A DNA stretch of 64,000 nt from Gemmatimonadaceae bacterium (GTDB lineage Bacteria > Gemmatimonadota > Gemmatimonadetes > Gemmatimonadales > Gemmatimonadaceae). The DNA is taken from the NCBI GenBank assembly GCA_031409715.1, contig JANNXU010000084.1, forward strand, positions 63,704 to 127,703, given 5' to 3'. Under the pieces are notes generated by a model, which saw nothing but the letters and a program-made list of their open reading frames with translations, did no database searches and was not told where the DNA came from. Made by a program: the position numbers and the translations under genes. Below are positions 3,582 through 54,586 of the stretch, piece after piece. The stretch's first letter is position 1. Each line of letters opens with the position of its first letter.

Positions 3582-5621
3582 ATGCTATCCTACGTCGACC
3601 GTAATCCTCTCCCTTTTCGCCGGCCCCACGTGCCTGATCCGGTAGATGCCACCGCCGACAACGAGTTGTTGGCGCGAGTGGAGCGCGCCCTTGCACCGCA
3701 GTACGAGGTGGAAGGTGAGCTCGGGCGTGGCGGCATGGGCATCGTCTATCGCGCCCGCGACACGCGGCTGAAGCGCTCGGTGGCGGTGAAGCTGCTGCCG
3801 CCCGAGCTGGCGTACCGGACGGAGATCAAGTCCCGCTTCCTGCGCGAGGCGGAGATGGCTGCCCAGCTCTCGCATCCGAACATCGTGCCGATCTATTCGG
3901 TCGACGAGAAGGACGGGCTGGTGTACTTCATCATGGCGTGCGTGGACGGCGACAATCTCGGGAAGCAGATGGCCACGCGCGGCCCACTGCCGGTGGCGGA
4001 GGTGCGTCGCATCATGCGGGAGGTGGCGGGTGCGCTCGCCTTCGCCCATGCGCGCAAGTTCATCCATCGCGACATCAAGCCGGACAACATCCTGGTCGAC
4101 AAGGATGACGGCCGCGCCATCGTCACCGACTTCGGCATCGCGCGCGCCGTGCAGGATGGCGCCGAGACGCGGCTCACGGCGACCGGCATCGCGATCGGCA
4201 CACCGGCGTACATGAGCCCCGAGCAGTGCGCCGGCGAGCGCGAGATCGATGGCCGTGCCGACCTGTATGCGCTGGGCACGCTCGGCTACCAGATGCTGGC
4301 GGGGCGGCTGCCGTTCGAGGCGACCAGCACGCCGGCGCTGCTCGTGAAGCAGCTCTCGGAGAAGCCGCGGCCGATCGTTGAACGGCGCCCCGACACGCCC
4401 CCCGACCTCGCGGGCATCATCATGCGCCTGCTGGAGAAGGACCCGGCGGCGCGCTTCGGGACGGCGGACGAACTCGCGGCGGCGCTCGACGGGCGAATCT
4501 CGTCCGGCTACAAGGCCCCGCCGGCCAACCGCACGCCGACACCGCTGATGAGTCAGTCGCCGCAGCCGTCGTGGGTGTTCGACGGGTCGCGGTCGGCGGC
4601 GGGCGGTGCCGTGCCGTCCGCGCCATACGGTGCCGCAACCAGCGAGGAAGTCGCGCGCTGGTATGCGCCGCAGGTCGTGAAGTTCCGGAAGGGCCTCGCA
4701 CCGTTCCTCACCTTCGCCGGCGTGGCAGTGGCGCTGAAGATCGTGAATGTCGTCGACCTCACGGTGGTGCCGGCGTTCTGGTCGATCGGCATCGCGATGG
4801 GCTACGCGAAGCTCTGGCAGGCAGGTTTCGACTGGCGCGACGTCTTCAAGCAGCCGCGCCACGTGTTGCTGGCCGATGTCGTCTCGGAAAAGGCGGATGA
4901 CGTGCAGGCGCTGTGGGACCCGAACAAGCGCAACATCGTCCGCGAACGGCAGCGGCTTCGTGTCGAGTCGGGCTCGGACGGTTCGTTCTACTCGGCCACC
5001 GACCGGATGATGAGCGACGGCGCGCTGCCGCCCGGCGTCACGCCCGGGTCGCCAGCGGCCGAGCAGGCACGGTACGGTGCGTGGTACGACGCGGTGCGTG
5101 ACGGGATCGGCGACCGGGCCGAGATCCAGCGCATGTACGAGTCGCTGCCGAAGGGAGAGAAAGGCATCGCGAGCGGGATCGTCGCCAACGCTGACGAACT
5201 GCTCTCGGCGGTGAAGTCGGAGGCCGCACAACTGGCGGACCTCGACCGCAACCCGGTCCAGCTGCCGGATGTCGCGCGCATCGAGCAGGAGATCACGCTG
5301 CTGGAATCGCAGGCGAATCCGCTCGAGCAGCGCAGCGAGGAGCGGGTGCGCCGCCTGGTGCGGTTGCGCCGCGAGAGTCGGCAGGCGGCCACGGAATCCG
5401 ATCGCCGCCGACGGTCGACCGACCGGCTGGAGCGCGCGCGGGCGGCGCTGCGGTCGATCCGCTTCGAGCTGGTCAAGCTGCGCACCGGCGCGTCGGCCTC
5501 GGGATCGACGGTCCACGTGACGCAGCTGGCGGAACGCGCGCAGGAGCTGGCGCGTGACGTCGACGCCGTGCTCGCCGCGGTTGGCAGCACGGGGTCGCGC
5601 GCGCCACGGGGCACCCGCTGA
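3582..5621 (+). CDS. Ser/Thr protein kinase (Hanks type) with two TM helices and a long charged C-terminal tail
   Basis: Motifs: GRGGMGIVYRA glycine loop, HRDIKPDNILV, DFGIARA, GTPAYMSPEQ. These are followed by a Pro-rich linker, hydrophobic segments (LAPFLTFAGVAVALKIV, VVPAFWSIGIAMGYAKLW) and a ~300-aa Arg/Glu/Leu-rich tail. The start at ATG 3582 is an inference, since the upstream ORF part is Pro/Arg-rich. Confidence 0.85.
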   Translation: MLSYVDRNPLPFRRPHVPDPVDATADNELLARVERALAPQYEVEGELGRGGMGIVYRARDTRLKRSVAVKLLPPELAYRTEIKSRFLREAEMAAQLSHPNIVPIYSVDEKDGLVYFIMACVDGDNLGKQMATRGPLPVAEVRRIMREVAGALAFAHARKFIHRDIKPDNILVDKDDGRAIVTDFGIARAVQDGAETRLTATGIAIGTPAYMSPEQCAGEREIDGRADLYALGTLGYQMLAGRLPFEATSTPALLVKQLSEKPRPIVERRPDTPPDLAGIIMRLLEKDPAARFGTADELAAALDGRISSGYKAPPANRTPTPLMSQSPQPSWVFDGSRSAAGGAVPSAPYGAATSEEVARWYAPQVVKFRKGLAPFLTFAGVAVALKIVNVVDLTVVPAFWSIGIAMGYAKLWQAGFDWRDVFKQPRHVLLADVVSEKADDVQALWDPNKRNIVRERQRLRVESGSDGSFYSATDRMMSDGALPPGVTPGSPAAEQARYGAWYDAVRDGIGDRAEIQRMYESLPKGEKGIASGIVANADELLSAVKSEAAQLADLDRNPVQLPDVARIEQEITLLESQANPLEQRSEERVRRLVRLRRESRQAATESDRRRRSTDRLERARAALRSIRFELVKLRTGASASGSTVHVTQLAERAQELARDVDAVLAAVGSTGSRAPRGTR

Positions 5622-5640
5622 TCGCGGGGCGACGCGCCCC

Positions 5641-7815
5641 ATGACGACCCCTGCGCCGGTCAGCGGCGACGAACTGCGCCAACGCCTCGCCGCCGCGCTC
5701 GCGCCGGCGTACACGGTGGAGGCGGAGCTCGGACGCGGCGGGATGAGCGTGGTCTATCGCGCCCACGACGTTCGCCTGCGCCGCGATGTGGCGATCAAGG
5801 TGCTCCCCCCGGAACTGGCGTTCGTCGCGAACGTGCGTGAACGATTCATGCGCGAGGCGCAGACGGCGGCGCAGCTCGCGCATCCGCACATCGTGCCGAT
5901 CTACGGCGTCGAGGAGCGCGACCGGCTGTCGTGGATCGTGATGGCACTCATCGAGGGTGAGACACTCGGCCAGCGACTGTCGCGGGAGGGATGCATCGAT
6001 GGGCCGGAGACGGAGCGGATCCTCAGCGGCGTTGCCGCCGCGTTGGCGTACGCGCACGCGCACGGCGTGATCCACCGCGACATCAAGCCGGACAACATCC
6101 TCCTCGAGCGTGGCACGCGACGTGTGCTCGTGACGGACTTCGGTATCGCGCGCGCCGCCGAGGGCGATGGGCGGCTGACGCTAACCGGCGTGGCCGTCGG
6201 CACACCGACCTACATGAGCCCCGAGCAGGCGATCGGCGATGGAGAAGTGGATGGCCGCTCAGACCTCTACTCGCTGGCCGTGGTCGGCTACCAGATGCTG
6301 GCCGGGGCACCGCCCTTCACGGCCACCAGCACGCCGGCGCTGCTGCTGAAGCAGGTGAGTTCGCCCTTGCCGGCACTGTCCGAGCGGGCGCCGTCGGCGC
6401 CGGTGACGTTGGTGGCGGCGATCGAGCGGGCGCTGGCGAAGAAGCCGGCGGACCGGTTCGACTCGCTGGAGGCGTTCGCGAGCGCCATGCGCGATCCGCC
6501 GGCTGCCGCGCCGCGGTCGGCGCCGCAGGGGCTGCGCAACCCGCCGGTGATCGGTGTGCCGGCGATGCCGCGTCCGGTGCGCGACCTCGTGCAGGACCGC
6601 GCGCCGGCGCAGGTACCACCGCTGCGGCCATCGCTGCCCGTGCCACCCCGGCCGCCGGTCCCGCTGGCAGGCGCGAATTCGGTGCCGGCGTGGGTGTACG
6701 GGGCCAGCGCCGACGCGCCGAGCATCGCGATGCGCGCGGCGAGCTTCCGGCGGCGGGCGCGCCGCACCGTCGTGATCATCGGCGGCCTCGCGCTGATCAA
6801 CGCCGTCACCTCGGCGGGGGCGCCGTGGGTGATGTTTCCCGCCTTCGCGATGCTGGTCGGCCTTTCGGCACGCTGGCGGCCGCTTGGTGATGCCGGGTTG
6901 GGGTTCCTGAACGTCGTGCTCGACCGGGAAGCCGAGCGAGTGGCGGGCGTGGAGCCGTCGGTGCCGGCGGTGCTGTTCAGCAACAGTCTGGCCGGCCGGG
7001 CGCGGCGGTTCGTCCGCCGGATCAAGACGGCGGCCGTGGCGGCCGGCGTCGGAGTCGTCTCGCTCGTCATTGGCGCGACGCTGCACGCCGAGCCGCTGGG
7101 CGCGTTCGCGGCCCTGAGCGGGGTTGGCGCGTTCGTGTCCGTGATGGCCGCCATCCGCTCCGCGCGGCCACTGACGCGGCTCGGCTTCCGGTATCGCGAG
7201 CTGATGAACGGCACCTGGCGCGACGGCGAGGCCTCACGTGCGCCGGGCACGGCGTTCCGGCTGCGCGAGGAGGAGGTGTCGCAGCTCGCGCCACCGGATG
7301 TGGTGATGAGCGGCTATGGCGAACGCCTGCGTCTGGCAGTGGACGACCGGACGGCGATCCGCCAGCAGATGGTGCGCCTTGGCGGCGCGGCGGGCGCGCT
7401 GATGCCGGATGTGGTGCCGACGGTGGATGCGCTCGTGTCACGGATTGCCGAGATCGCGGCGTCGCTGCACCAGCTCGACCGGGACATGGGAGCCGCCGGC
7501 GATGGTTCGCTGGACGCCCGGATCCGCGAGTTGCGAGGGCAGGGCGTGCCCGACGACGACCGCATGCTGGCACTGTTGCTCCGGCAGCGGCAGTCACTGT
7601 CCGACCTGGAAGGCCGTCGCGGCATGCTGCGATCCAAGCTGGAAAGCGCCTCGGTGACTTTGCAGAACCTGCGACTGGATGTGCTTCGGCTGGGTTCGAT
7701 GGGTCTGGAGGCGCCAGCGCGCCGTGACGTCGGGCAGGCCACGGAGCAGGCGCGGGCGCTGTCGAAAGATCTGGCGTACCTGCTGGAAGGGGCGCGGGAA
7801 GCGGACCGGTACTGA
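5641..7815 (+). CDS. Ser/Thr protein kinase (Hanks type), paralog of the preceding gene, with about four TM segments and a coiled-coil-like tail
   Basis: Motifs: GRGGMSVVYRA, HRDIKPDNILL, DFGIARA, GTPTYMSPEQ. A Pro-rich linker and several hydrophobic helices follow, then an Arg/Leu/Asp-rich C-terminus. The start at ATG 5641 (MTTPAPVSGDELRQRL) lies 19 nt after the upstream stop. Confidence 0.85.
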   Translation: MTTPAPVSGDELRQRLAAALAPAYTVEAELGRGGMSVVYRAHDVRLRRDVAIKVLPPELAFVANVRERFMREAQTAAQLAHPHIVPIYGVEERDRLSWIVMALIEGETLGQRLSREGCIDGPETERILSGVAAALAYAHAHGVIHRDIKPDNILLERGTRRVLVTDFGIARAAEGDGRLTLTGVAVGTPTYMSPEQAIGDGEVDGRSDLYSLAVVGYQMLAGAPPFTATSTPALLLKQVSSPLPALSERAPSAPVTLVAAIERALAKKPADRFDSLEAFASAMRDPPAAAPRSAPQGLRNPPVIGVPAMPRPVRDLVQDRAPAQVPPLRPSLPVPPRPPVPLAGANSVPAWVYGASADAPSIAMRAASFRRRARRTVVIIGGLALINAVTSAGAPWVMFPAFAMLVGLSARWRPLGDAGLGFLNVVLDREAERVAGVEPSVPAVLFSNSLAGRARRFVRRIKTAAVAAGVGVVSLVIGATLHAEPLGAFAALSGVGAFVSVMAAIRSARPLTRLGFRYRELMNGTWRDGEASRAPGTAFRLREEEVSQLAPPDVVMSGYGERLRLAVDDRTAIRQQMVRLGGAAGALMPDVVPTVDALVSRIAEIAASLHQLDRDMGAAGDGSLDARIRELRGQGVPDDDRMLALLLRQRQSLSDLEGRRGMLRSKLESASVTLQNLRLDVLRLGSMGLEAPARRDVGQATEQARALSKDLAYLLEGAREADRY

Positions 7816-7869
7816 GTCCACACGGCCTTCCCCGGTCTCAGCGGCAACGGAACATCGCAGCAGCAACGA

Positions 7870-8009
7870 AACAGCAGAACGCCAAGGCGCCGAGGGACTG
7901 AGAGGCGCGAAGGAAGGACTTCTGGGCTAGTCGACCCGCATCGGGAGCGCTGTTCCCAAGGCTGTACGTCGCGTCTTTCGGTTCCTCGGCGCCTTGGCGT
8001 TCTGCTGTT
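7870..8009. repeat. Perfect 26-bp inverted repeat (A-type module pair) between convergent genes
   Basis: AACAGCAGAACGCCAAGGCGCCGAGG at 7870-7895 and its exact reverse complement at 7984-8009. Both are flanked outward by CAG/CAA (left) and GTT/GCT (right) runs. Confidence 0.9.
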
Positions 8010-8040
8010 CAGTTGTTGTTGTTGCTGCTGCTGATTCTGC

Positions 8041-8862
8041 CTATCGCTCGACGAGGGCGGTGATGATTTCGGCCAGTCGCTCGGGCGATTCCTCGGGGAG
8101 GAAGTGGCGGCCGGACTCCAGGACGTCGAGTGTGGAGCCGCGGATCGCCTGCTCGAGCCGGCGGGCGGCGGCGACGGAGATGAAGGGGTCGTGGGCGCCG
8201 TGGACGATGGCGGTGGGCGCCGGGACCGATCCAAGCCGTGCGCCGATCTCCATCGTGTCGGCGCTGTCGAGTGCCTCGAGGTGGGCGACGTGGAGGTCGC
8301 GGCCGGCAGGGGTGGCGAAATTGCGGATGTAGCGGTCGATGGAGCGGGAGGCCAGTTCGGCGTCGACGAAGCCGCGCGCGAGGTCGGTCTTGAGCACTCC
8401 AAGGAGCCATGTGGCGGGAAGGTGGCGCGTCAGTGGCAGTGTAGCGCGCGCCATTTTCACTTCTCTCGACGGCCACTCATCGAAGCAGACGCTGCTGACG
8501 AGGCAGAGATGCGAGACCCGGTGTGGCGCCCGCACGGCGACCGCCTGTGCGATGCCGCCACCGACGTCATGGCCGATGAGGCAGGCGCGGTTGATTCCGA
8601 GCAGATCCAGCAGCACGAGCAGGCGGTCGGCGTGCGCCCGGATGTCGAGCGTGAGCGCGCCCGGCGGGTCGCTCCGGCCATACCCCAGCAGATCCAGCAC
8701 AACGACACGCCGCCCGTCGGGGAGGAGCGGAACCAGTTCCTGCCACAGGTGCGACGAGGTGGGGAAGCCGTGGATGAGCACCAGCGGCTCGCCGCCGCCA
8801 CGGGTGCCGGCCGCGTAGTAGTACAGGCGCGCGCCGCCGACGTCGAGGAACTCGCCGCGCAC
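8041..8862 (-). CDS. Alpha/beta-fold hydrolase
   Basis: The core is LVLIHGFPTSSHLWQ...LDLLGYGRSD...LIGHDVGGGIA (nucleophile elbow G-H-D-V-G). The ORF runs to 9150, but its N-terminal part looks non-coding. The start is tentatively the in-frame GTG 8860-8862 and remains uncertain. Confidence 0.75.
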   Translation of the reverse strand: MRGEFLDVGGARLYYYAAGTRGGGEPLVLIHGFPTSSHLWQELVPLLPDGRRVVVLDLLGYGRSDPPGALTLDIRAHADRLLVLLDLLGINRACLIGHDVGGGIAQAVAVRAPHRVSHLCLVSSVCFDEWPSREVKMARATLPLTRHLPATWLLGVLKTDLARGFVDAELASRSIDRYIRNFATPAGRDLHVAHLEALDSADTMEIGARLGSVPAPTAIVHGAHDPFISVAAARRLEQAIRGSTLDVLESGRHFLPEESPERLAEIITALVER

Positions 8863-9173
8863 TACGACCGTGTCCGTGTTTCGGGGGAATGAATCCGTCA
8901 GTCTCCAGCAGGGACCGGGCAGTCCGGTCGTGGCTTCGGTTCGGGGATTTACACCCGTCGCCGTCGAAGGGTACGCCTGGTGATGCGAGGCGCAAATGGT
9001 TGCCGTCGGACCATCGGCGTGCCGGCGGAGGCTCCGGTCGACGACGCCTGGGCACGCCGTCAGAGGATTCGTGCCGGGGTGAGAATTTTCGAGCACACCC
9101 CATGCCACGGCGCCGCCTTCTGTAGTAGCTTGGAGGTTGTTGTGGCGCAACGTGTTCCGTCCGCACCCCTCCT

Positions 9174-12940: not shown

Positions 12941-13375
12941 AACAGCAGAACGCAGAGTCGCCACGGGACAGAAAGGCGCAGAGGGTGTGCGGTGTCCGGT
13001 TGCGGTCTGACGGGGGCATGATTTGCGAAGGGCAGGTAACGCTGTAACGGCAACGGCAACGGCAACTGCTTGACGCCAAGGCGCAAAGGCACGGAGGTGC
13101 AACGCTGTCGGCCCGCGCGATGTTCGGTGGTGCGAGGGTGTTGTGTGCTCGAACGGCTGGAGGATCTGCGCTCGCGAGCGCAATTCCTCCAGCTTTTTTG
13201 CGGCGGGTGGCGTCAGTTCCATCGCGTCTCGTGTGACCGACCGCGTTGCGCCTTTGCGTCAAGCCGTTGACGATGCCAGACGCGCCGATCGACCGCTGCG
13301 ACCACGCGCGCTGTTCCCCCAGTACTTCTTTGCGCCGTTCGGTCCCTTTCAGTCCCTTTGCGTTGATGCTGTTCC
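12941..13375. repeat. Composite nested inverted repeat: A unit, (AACGGC)3, B unit, terminator, B', A'
   Basis: The A unit starts at 12941. Hexamers occupy 13046-13069 and the B unit starts at 13070. B' lies at 13243-13264 and A' at about 13310-13375. See findings for the sequences. Confidence 0.8.
13156..13199 (+). terminator. Rho-independent terminator of the helicase gene
   Basis: GCTGGAGGA-(tctGCGCTCGCGAGCGCaat)-TCCTCCAGC followed by TTTTTT. The inner GCGCTCGCGAGCGC is itself a perfect palindrome. Confidence 0.85.
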
Positions 13376-13392: not shown

Positions 13393-13812
13393 CTATGCGC
13401 GGCGGATGCGGCCGATGCGGGAGATGGCGAGGGCGGTCGAGGCGCTGCCGCGCGTGATGGTGATGGTGGCCGTCGCGGCGCCCCAGCCGATGCCGGTGGG
13501 ACCGAAGGCGATGGAGTCGCGGGTGGTGGTGATGCGCACGCCGTAGGTGTCGAGTCGCAGCGTCCGGATCGTGTCGGCGCCGGCGAACACGGTGAGCGTG
13601 TTGCCGCTGGTGTCGATCCGGACTGCCGTCCGCCGAGCCGCGGTGAGCGCCATCGTGCGTGCGTCGGCCAGCGTGCGCGCCGCGTCGACGGCGGCGAGGC
13701 GGACGGTGATCCGGTCGCGCATGCCGACCAGCGCCGGGAGCGCGACGCCGGCGAGGACGGCGGTGATGGTGAGGGCGATCAGGATTTCGGGCAGGGTGAA
13801 GCCGGTGCGCAT
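13393..13812 (-). CDS. Prepilin-type N-terminal cleavage/methylation domain protein (GspH/FimT-like pseudopilin)
   Basis: MRTGFTLPEILIALTITAVLAGVALP matches the class III signal (G/FTLxE). GGAG lies 7 nt upstream of the ATG. Length is 139 aa. Confidence 0.85.
   Translation of the reverse strand: MRTGFTLPEILIALTITAVLAGVALPALVGMRDRITVRLAAVDAARTLADARTMALTAARRTAVRIDTSGNTLTVFAGADTIRTLRLDTYGVRITTTRDSIAFGPTGIGWGAATATITITRGSASTALAISRIGRIRRA

Positions 13813-26965: not shown

Positions 26966-26982
<17 letters not shown>
26866..26982. repeat. 39-bp tandem repeat x3 starting at the helicase stop codon
   Basis: GTCGGTGTGGCTCGACG(G/A)TC... begins at 26866, 26905 and 26944. The tail of the third unit merges into the A-type module. 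Confidence 0.9.
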
Positions 26983-27180
<198 letters not shown>

Positions 27181-34474: not shown

Positions 34475-34795
34475 CGGTGCTGAACAGCTTCAACAGCTTC
34501 AAGTCTTTGACAGCTGAACAAAGACAACGCCAAGGGAACTGAGAGGAAACGGAAAGGACGCAGAGAACGGCTTTTTGAATGGAACTGCCTGGGTGTCGTG
34601 CGGTGTGCAGCGTGCACCGGGAATGACCTGCTGTTCCAGATACAGTGCCGTTCTCTGCGTTCTTTCGGTTCACTTTGCGCCTTTGCGTTCTTCCTTAGCT
34701 GTAAGGTTCTGCTTTAGCTGTAAGGTTCTGCTTTTGCTGTAGCGTTCTGCTCTTGCTGTAGCGTCTTGGCTGTTGTCGATCTGGACTGATATCGG
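34475..34795. repeat. Module-family inverted repeat with low-complexity flanks, splitting the aldH and DUF779 genes
   Basis: The arms lie at 34526-34571 and 34647-34689. The perfect core is GCAGAGAACGGC (34560-34571) with GCCGTTCTCTGC (34647-34658). The right flank holds about 19-bp tandem units (TAGCTGTAAGGTTCTGCTT x2 plus variants). Confidence 0.85.
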
Positions 34796-54208: not shown

Positions 54209-54586
54209 CTGCAACGGCAACGGCGGAAACGCAAAACTGGACAGCCGCAAAACGGCACTGTTGCAAAACGGCAACGGCAACGGCCACCGCGATTTTATCG
54301 CAGAACGGCACAGCCGCAGAACGGCACAACCGCAGAACGGCAACAGCCACCGAACAGCAAGGGCTTTGCGAACTGCAGTTGCCGTTGCAGTTCCTCCAGC
54401 ATTTTCGATGCATCGTGTTTCGCAGACACTGAATGCCCGCACGAATGCCGTGCCGTTCTGCGGTTGTGCCGTTCTGCGATAAAATCGCTGTGGCCGTTGC
54501 TGTTGCTGTCGCCGTTGCCGTTTTGCAACAATGCCGTTTTGCGGTTGTGCAGTTTTGCGTTTCCGCCGTTGCAGTTGCAGTTGCAG
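54209..54586. repeat. Large imperfect palindrome (arms of about 133 bp, centre of about 110 bp)
   Basis: The left arm is 54209-54341 and the right arm 54452-54586, about 90 percent complementary by eye. Arms contain GCAGAACGGCACARCC repeats, (AACGGC)n and (GCAGTT)n. The degenerate symmetry extends to both gene ends. Confidence 0.9.

Follow-up and report, generated by a model that had tools for sequence, protein, structure and literature searches.

A gene-less fold-back element between convergent genes of a Gemmatimonadaceae genome and its probable link to a GxxExxY nuclease gene

The spacer between a protein kinase gene and a convergent hydrolase gene, in a 64,000-nt stretch of a Gemmatimonadaceae genome (hereafter the window, numbered from its first letter), is filled by a gene-less, non-autonomous fold-back element of about 175 bp at 7857-8031, which consists of two inverted arms of about 44 nt, here termed A-type, and a 55-nt centre. 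Here, we argue that this hairpin is probably a non-autonomous member of a fold-back family linked to a nuclease gene, and that it was inserted between the converging genes. Comparisons within the genome and across the genus establish its membership of the family, its insertion, the preference of the family for gene 3′ ends, the pairing of nuclease genes with arm types, the synteny of the gene and the concerted evolution of arms, and we infer that the nuclease moves the repeats. The genome (designated G000, with its other contigs given as C-numbers) is 5.02 Mb in size with 68% G+C, and relatives of the kinase place it in the Gemmatimonadaceae; the assembly is fragmented into 104 contigs and probably collapses young copies of the repeats.

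The fold-back element and its spacer

The Ser/Thr protein kinase gene (open reading frame (ORF) at 5554-7815, + strand; Pfam Pkinase, E 2.4e-45) has its stop codon 41 nt before the element and converges on an alpha/beta hydrolase gene (ORF at 8041-9150, − strand; Abhydrolase_1, E 8.8e-32; stop codon 8041-8043). Within the spacer, AACAGCAGAACGCCAAGGCGCCGAGG at 7870-7895 on the + strand is repeated as an exact reverse complement at 7984-8009, the perfect 26-nt arms being separated by an 88-nt loop, as seen both by reading the sequence and by pattern search; 100 dinucleotide-preserving shuffles gave 0 comparable inverted matches. Repeat search shows that the symmetry is wider than 26 nt: arms at 7858-7921 and 7958-8021 are 80% complementary, and an outer 11-nt pair (7857-7867 and 8021-8031) is a perfect inverted match, giving the fold-back its full extent of 7857-8031.

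From left to right, the element begins with a terminal low-complexity stutter (GCAGCAGCAACGA; 7857-7869, + strand) that pairs with 8019-8031. This is followed by the left A-type arm (7870-7913, + strand), which is purine-rich with about four CRRAGG units, is matched by nhmmer and the covariance model at 7871-7913 (E 3.3e-11) and is perfectly complementary to the right arm over its outer 26 nt. An asymmetric centre of 55 nt (7914-7968) leads to the right A-type arm (7969-8009, − strand; model match, E 3.0e-10) and to the right terminal stutter (CAGTTGTTGTTGTTGCTGCTGC; 8010-8031, − strand), which was delimited by sequence and repeat search. A unique left remnant of the original spacer lies outside the fold-back at 7816-7856; together with 8032-8040 it amounts to about 50 nt, comparable in length to the shorter of the orthologous spacers that lack the element. 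The first-pass annotation had described a 26-bp perfect inverted repeat, with trinucleotide or hexanucleotide low complexity outside its arms and no T-tract on either side, as one copy of a repeated module that fills the convergent kinase/hydrolase spacer, and this description stands in each of its parts.

Predicted folding on both strands, which the same annotation had suggested, gives stable hairpins. RNA of the + strand forms about 41 contiguous pairs, four of them G.U, with a predicted energy of -138 kcal/mol (z -11.3); RNA of the − strand reaches -113 kcal/mol (z -6.3), and the fold of single-stranded DNA -70.9 kcal/mol (z -12.5). A structure of this kind could be under selection as a factor-independent terminator that works in both directions, or as a stabiliser of the 3′ ends of the kinase and hydrolase mRNAs; it would then block polymerase or 3′ exonucleases from either side, as in the enterobacterial repetitive extragenic palindromic (REP) sequences and bacterial interspersed mosaic elements (BIMEs). 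The great stability of the hairpin on both strands speaks for such a role, as do the enrichment of the family at gene 3′ ends and in convergent spacers, the presence of all four G.U pairs on the kinase-sense strand, and the hairpins followed by T runs in some larger members of the family. On the other side, neither strand of the window element carries a T-tract, and a pattern scan for terminator-like sites gave one match where 0.5 are expected by chance, hence none above chance. The combination of a short G+C-rich stem-loop with a T/U tract that defines an intrinsic (Rho-independent) terminator is thus absent from the element. Rfam 15 has no match in the window at gathering scores; below threshold there is a single chance match to a miRNA hairpin (E 0.15).

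The history of the spacer also bears on the question. Kinase orthologues with 65-71% identity are found in 16 Gemmatimonadaceae metagenome-assembled genomes (MAGs), and in related genomes the hydrolase orthologue follows the kinase gene in opposite orientation, but an A-type arm is present at the orthologous spacer in none of the 16 (nhmmer arm profile, E <= 10). In three relatives (L011, L002 and L013) the convergent spacer is only about 20-35 nt long, which evidently suffices there and counts against a terminator or stabiliser that the two genes need; in other species an extra gene or unrelated repeats occupy the spacer. The converse case is provided by a homologous copy in the genome of a sister species, G009, which occupies another convergent spacer, whose counterpart in G000 is empty and only about 45 nt long. 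Because orthologous sites are filled and empty in both directions, the window element is best read, from the sequence comparison, as an insertion into a short convergent spacer and not as a locus-specific conserved structure. Absence from orthologous spacers was one of two observations that the first-pass annotation had tied to a neutral selfish repeat, and as far as these 16 genomes go it is what was found. Since other repeats occupy the kinase/hydrolase spacer in other species, this spacer has been colonised repeatedly. The spacers at L010:5240-5470 and L006:5260-5390, for example, hold unrelated tandem and inverted repeats (GGGGGCAAGGACTCCGTCCCCTTGACC arrays and CCCTCATGGACTC repeats, respectively).

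Insertions of the family are not evenly distributed. Eight of 13 classifiable A-type pairs lie in convergent spacers, which make up 17.5% of all spacers (p 5e-4; gene calls for this test came from a rough GC3-based ORF filter), and A arms usually start 15-70 nt past a stop codon. Copies are also found in tandem and divergent spacers, with just one classifiable pair in a divergent spacer (C76:12985-13510). This bias fits purifying selection against promoter hits as well as it fits a preference for gene ends; the same location bias is seen in REP/BIME elements and in many miniature inverted-repeat transposable elements (MITEs). The two empty sites that were compared, the L011 spacer (in G016) and C90:18950-19000 of G000, have in common the 10-mer GGCGCCGCCA, possibly a target motif; judged post hoc, two such sites would share some 10-mer by chance with a probability of about 0.003, and GGCGCC also occurs inside the arms of the window element. 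Two exact-pattern scans of metagenome contigs found no near-identical strains with this spacer.

The A-type family and the pairing of its arms

Iterated nhmmer finds 50 A-type arms in G000 and a covariance model of the arm (R1, built on sequence only) finds 61-62, corresponding to a family of about 25-30 fold-back elements with about 60 arms. Most arms occur as pairs, + then −, with their AACAGC ends pointing outward, in elements of 140-530 nt. In the family alignment the arm consensus, AACAGCAGAACGCAAAGGCGCAAAGGGACTGAAAGGCGCAGAG, is rich in purines and made up of about four CRRAGG-type units at a spacing of 8-10 nt, and AACNGC-type hexamer stutters precede or flank the arms of most members. 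Single arms are neither self-complementary nor palindromic. The centres vary in length and sequence and are mostly unrelated, but that of the window element is homologous to the centres of two other copies: one at a different locus in G000 (C91:12509-12650; 78% over 140 nt) and the copy in G009 (contig C279, 3808-3952; 71%), which is homologous through arms and centre.

If the hairpin were selected as an RNA helix, differences between paired arms should tend to preserve pairing. When the two arms of each of 16 paired A-type elements are aligned, 133 positions differ in total: 64 are transversions, which break pairing on both strands, 38 retain a G.U pair on the + strand and 31 do so on the − strand. 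Arm identity is 72% within one element, against 66% between elements. Because the arm differences show no pairing-preserving bias, they argue against a selected RNA helix, and the A-type family as a whole does not seem to be maintained as one. The window copy by itself has a 5:0 bias toward G.U pairs on the + strand, which is not significant alone, and the better-folding strand is inconsistent between the homologous window and C91 copies; in the latter, the G.U bias is not tied to element orientation. Strand asymmetry of G.U pairs was considered as evidence for an RNA helix and rejected, given the family-wide ratio of 38 : 31 alongside 64 transversions and the inconsistency between the window and C91 copies. 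Among the window, C91 and G009 copies there are 16 stem pairs with double changes that keep pairing; because both arms descend from one source, these cannot separate an RNA helix from paired termini.

These results bear on how the perfect 26-bp run is to be understood. The first-pass annotation took the window element for the cleanest copy of the family and read the 26/26 match as recent homogenisation or selection. The first of these statements holds in part: the 26-nt run is equalled at C86:25798-26044 and surpassed at C69:14796-15309, which has a run of 32 nt, and in overall arm identity the window copy (40/48) falls below the C100 (43/48) and C86 (44/48) copies. Perfect runs of 24-32 nt are present in three other elements, in differing parts of the arm. 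The 26/26 run is thus the upper tail of a decaying population, and youth or arm-to-arm conversion explains it better than selection for structure. It is most probably the mark of a copy that is fairly young or was homogenised not long ago; the homogenisation half of the earlier reading thus survives, and the half that invoked selection for structure does not, since arm differences across the family do not keep pairing.

The same data return us to the terminator or stabiliser. Beyond the absence of a T-tract and of the element from the relatives, the broken pairing between arms across the family, the unconstrained centres and lengths, the copies in tandem and divergent spacers, the enclosure of a gene by one pair of arms and the inconsistent better-folding strand of the window and C91 copies all speak against it, and we regard it as improbable. 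An effect on mRNA would instead be a by-product of the insertion: by giving each of the convergent transcripts a very stable hairpin at its 3′ end, the element could block 3′-to-5′ exonucleases or slow read-through.

Nuclease genes between inverted arms

The sole gene found between A arms is a 129-aa ORF in the divergent spacer on C76, whose arms at 12985-13027 and 13469-13510 match the A-arm model with E 8e-9 and 6.8e-9, respectively. Its product belongs to PF13366 (PDDEXK_3; E 9.6e-38) and TIGR04256 (GxxExxY; E 8.2e-40) and has intact GxxExxY and D...E.K motifs. The connection between the hairpin and such a gene is absent from the first-pass annotation. PF13366 is a large family that is listed as 'function unknown' (PMC3424549).

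This arrangement is not confined to one gene. All three PF13366 genes of G000 lie between inverted arms, and in 13 sister genomes 16 of 20 PF13366 loci have flanking inverted repeats (>=20 matches), compared with 3 of 600 random windows of G000. The three genes correspond to three arm types, each of which is also dispersed in the genome in gene-less form: about 60 arms for the A-type, about 25-30 loci for the C2-type and about 35-40 loci for the C14-type. The near-complete genome G016 has the same one-to-one pattern, with 55, 46 and 54 matches for the three arm families. Arm types, assigned to groups by eye, cluster on the protein tree with 5 changes, compared with a mean of 12.2 after shuffling (0/200 shuffles as low); this tree of 49 proteins resolves the C2, D and C14 clades and leaves the A grade unresolved. 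At the level of sequence, nuclease genes and arm families are paired one to one. We found no description of this pairing between GxxExxY nuclease and fold-back repeats in the literature on Gemmatimonas repeats, on GxxExxY/PDDEXK_3 proteins or on proteins of intervening sequences with inverted repeats.

Across the genus, the gene and the gene-less copies behave differently. A comparison of 210-nt flanks shows that the A-lineage nuclease loci of about 13 species share flanking sequence, and the neighbouring gene (C76:12385-12776; 78-83% identity) adjoins the nuclease gene in G016, G010 and G005 over 6.5 kb. Because the flanks and the neighbouring gene are conserved, the A-lineage nuclease gene seems to have kept a single syntenic position and to have been inherited vertically at this fixed site. 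The gene-less copies, on the other hand, occupy different positions in different species. A profile built from the dispersed arms of G000, with the C76 arms left out, gives the latter 29.8 and 27.2 bits, whereas no orthologous arm from 13 other species exceeds 16.4 bits; by this measure of sequence similarity, there is concerted evolution between the arms at the fixed locus and the dispersed copies of their own genome. Gene and arms also occur together: among the genomes of the genus, 10 of 10 with at least four R1 A-arm matches have an A-grade nuclease gene, while the five genomes without an A-grade gene have 0-2 matches (Fisher one-sided about 0.016, for related and thus non-independent genomes). 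The near-complete G001 has no PF13366 gene, no A arms and no C14 arms, and G005, whose only such gene is of the A lineage, has A arms and no C14 arms. The genus-level synteny, the leave-out test of concerted evolution and the table of gene/arm co-occurrence are new in this analysis.

Two rival readings would assign the elements to other enzymes. An ordinary MITE would be the internally deleted derivative of a transposase-encoding insertion sequence (IS) with the same terminal inverted repeats, and would be moved by the transposase of that IS. The terminal inverted repeats, the small size and the filled and empty sites between species would all fit, and several IS families are present in the genome, some of them inserted inside A-type elements. 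However, no pair of A arms encloses a transposase (a 2.2-kb spacing on C102 proved to be two separate elements flanking an amidase gene), the IS ends at contig breaks do not resemble the A arm, no target-site duplication can be made out at the stutter-blurred borders and the GxxExxY nuclease gene is the only one detected between A arms, making a MITE origin very unlikely. Still less credible, and already disfavoured, is a REPIN, that is, two inverted REP sequences mobilised by the RAYT (a Y1 HUH transposase) of the genome. The doublet-hairpin architecture and extragenic location of the elements are those of REPINs, and G000 does have a single RAYT-like Y1_Tnp gene (PF01797; C76:140805-141131, − strand), but the inverted motifs on either side of this gene (GGTGACAGTG / CACTGTCACC) are its own and bear no relation to A arms, no A-arm match lies nearby, and A arms are not palindromes. 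A link to the RAYT was rejected on account of these other flanks.

The preferred reading, a non-autonomous member of the nuclease-linked family, has points that weigh against it. There are no visible direct repeats (target-site duplication) and no defined boundary at the borders of the element, where hexamer stutters blur the junctions and the empty sites are too diverged; no movement has been observed, and the nearest copy is only 78% identical. The four G.U pairs of the + strand stand where the − strand has A.C mismatches, which is compatible with some RNA-level constraint at the window copy. In the genus comparison, G003 (5 contigs, 94% complete) has 39 C14-type arms and no C14-clade gene among its two PF13366 copies, so that these arms are either an orphan repeat population or belong to a gene that was missed, and four genomes have an A-grade gene and no R1 matches, their arms being too diverged for R1. 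Co-inheritance of gene and arms would moreover follow from physical linkage alone. As to the predicted action of the nuclease on the arms, a sequence search of the protein matched no solved structure, and the model of the C76 protein is mediocre (pLDDT 70, built from three sequences), its fold search giving weak, generic PD-(D/E)XK matches (AF1548, Bax1, Cas4 SSO0001 and RecU; E >= 0.045).

On the preferred reading, the cognate nuclease would act in trans on the arms, as hairpin, cruciform or single strand, and thereby make or maintain gene-less copies; the copy in the window would persist because a convergent spacer tolerates it. RNase III appears to be lacking. No match to PF14622, PF00636 or TIGR02191 was found in G000, TIGR02191 matched none of 20 genomes of the genus, and PF14622 had no match in 41 Gemmatimonadaceae genomes, which represent 40 genera and include 28 that are at least 90% complete; the same models match in 8-9 model genomes used as controls. 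This lack might let long perfect hairpins accumulate in transcribed spacers. Excision from RNA, as for the intervening sequences (IVSs) of 23S rRNA, is an unlikely route, since three models find no RNase III and the element is intergenic; the S23p/IVS protein (PF05635) is likewise absent from G000.

Related repeats and comparable systems

The window contains further members of these families. A second, composite A-type element at 12941-13373 comprises an A arm (model match 12941-12984, +), a nested pair of B-type arms (B arm at 13068-13116) around a central hairpin with a T run, and an inverted A arm (13328-13373, −). A half element at 26967-27178 (+ strand) consists of an A arm, which is the best model match of the genome (E 2.7e-12), a (CAACAG)n microsatellite and a B arm (27141-27178); no inverted partner was found for it. 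A further A-type arm lies at 34653-34691 (− strand; E 2.5e-6). The other arm family of the window is represented by a gene-less C14-type pair at 54296-54481, detected by blastn at C84:117999-118041 and C84:118153-118184, which is cognate to a second GxxExxY gene of G000. Outside the window, at C102:30006-32265, an amidase gene has a complete A-type fold-back directly at both ends.

The B-type arms (cTTGACGCCAAGGCGC...CAACGCgGTCGGT), 26 in all, belong to a fold-back family of their own. Five of its pairs occur singly and about 11 (about two thirds) are nested 110-185 nt inside A-type elements, where they often surround a central GGAACTGC...GCAGTTCC hairpin. Besides the two B arms in the window, examples are found at C22:48292-48495, C55:17863-18081, C55:83795-84005 and C95:35016-35219. 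No B-specific nuclease gene was seen in G000.

Ten contig ends break inside A/B composites at the ends of at least four different ISs (the 3′ ends of C5, C34, C55, C77 and C83 and the 5′ ends of C11, C74, C82, C83 and C95); two of these ISs look IS256-like (GGGTCTGTCGGAAATTCTGTGTATGAGCC...), and the insertion points are at varying positions. A/B fold-backs are thus landing places for ISs and break the assembly, and fold-backs together with the IS copies inside them interrupt short-read assemblies of Gemmatimonadaceae. The start of the A arm, AACAGCAGAACGCAAAGGCGC, occurs exactly in fold-backs of other phyla whose arms are in the style of CGCARRG units: at L145, L146 and L148 (a Terriglobia MAG), L147 (Sumerlaeota) and L152 (Caldilineales). 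The remaining matches of that scan lie in coding sequence and appear to be due to chance.

Of the systems known from other bacteria, the closest in organisation are the REPIN/RAYT systems, or REPtrons, of Pseudomonas and enterobacteria (PMC3116915, PMC3337134, PMC5581495). Both comprise tens of extragenic, hairpin-forming doublets of inverted short repeats and a single-copy, vertically inherited enzyme gene that is framed by the same repeats; in both, a genome may hold several orthogonal enzyme/repeat pairs, and the repeats turn over while the gene is static. They differ in the enzyme, which here is a PD-(D/E)XK (GxxExxY) protein of about 125 aa and not a Y1 HUH transposase, and in the repeats, which here are arrays of 40-50 nt made up of purine-rich 6-9-nt units with terminal stutters, whereas REPs are palindromes of 20-25 nt; the Y1_Tnp gene of G000 is not associated with A arms. 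A stronger proposal, which we put forward tentatively and would not expect to hold in every part, is that the A hairpins and the GxxExxY protein on C76 are a two-component system like REPIN/RAYT, run by a PD-(D/E)XK nuclease. The arms, whether folded or single-stranded, would be recognised by a resident nuclease of vertical descent, which would copy, excise or homogenise the gene-less hairpins; three orthogonal pairs per genome would co-diverge with their repeats across the genus, and a bacterial family apparently without RNase III would tolerate the long perfect hairpins.

A nuclease framed by its repeat has a precedent in the Ssn nucleases and NTS/SRM repeats of Neisseria and others, in which a small site-specific nuclease is framed by the repeat that it recognises (PMC11893778). 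The likeness lies in a small nuclease gene framed by a repeat that is dispersed in many copies around genes; Ssn proteins, however, belong to the GIY-YIG superfamily and cut single-stranded DNA, whereas the protein described here is predicted from its sequence to have a PD-(D/E)XK fold. By analogy with NTS/SsnA, repeats and nuclease might serve the host, the repeats being recognition sites through which a sequence-specific nuclease would influence transformation, recombination or defence. Consistent with this, the nuclease gene is single-copy for each arm type, apparently vertical at a fixed locus and intact in its catalytic residues, three orthogonal pairs persist across the genus, and dispersed repeats cut by the nuclease that they frame are known from the published case. 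Such a function would be assumed from the analogy, however, and the copies decay, their positions differ between species and the near-complete G001 does without both gene and repeats; a service to the host is accordingly a rather remote prospect.

Other intergenic repeats offer more general parallels. BIME/REP sequences of E. coli, Correia elements and ERIC sequences are built as mosaics of inverted repeat modules. They lie between convergent genes and at gene 3′ ends, form stable RNA hairpins, serve as hot spots of IS insertion and show nesting of modules, as B-type elements are nested in A-type elements here. They have no sequence relation to the A-type family, their module structure is different, and the association with a nuclease gene sets the present family apart. 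The ORF-bearing IVSs of 23S rRNA (e.g. in Coxiella; PMC4990558), in which a small ORF without known function lies within an inverted-repeat stem, are regarded as selfish; they resemble the C76 locus in their ORF-in-stem layout, and the IVS stem is adjoined by short tandem repeats in variable number. The IVS, however, lies inside rRNA and is excised by RNase III, whereas the elements described here are intergenic in a genome with no detected RNase III and no S23p/PF05635 gene.

Taken alone, the window hairpin is an ordinary intergenic repeat, and its annotation as terminator or regulatory RNA would call for transcript data. What makes it valuable is the access that it gives to a system of repeats and enzyme. 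The genus offers an unusually clean comparison, with three gene/arm pairs per genome, an A-lineage gene that is apparently static while the repeats turn over, and one genome without both; its repeat populations track the gene-flanking arms of their own genome. Should the nuclease prove to act on the arms, the family would represent a second enzymatic route, beside that of the RAYTs, to long-lived intragenomic repeat populations, and a possible source of structure- or sequence-specific small nucleases.

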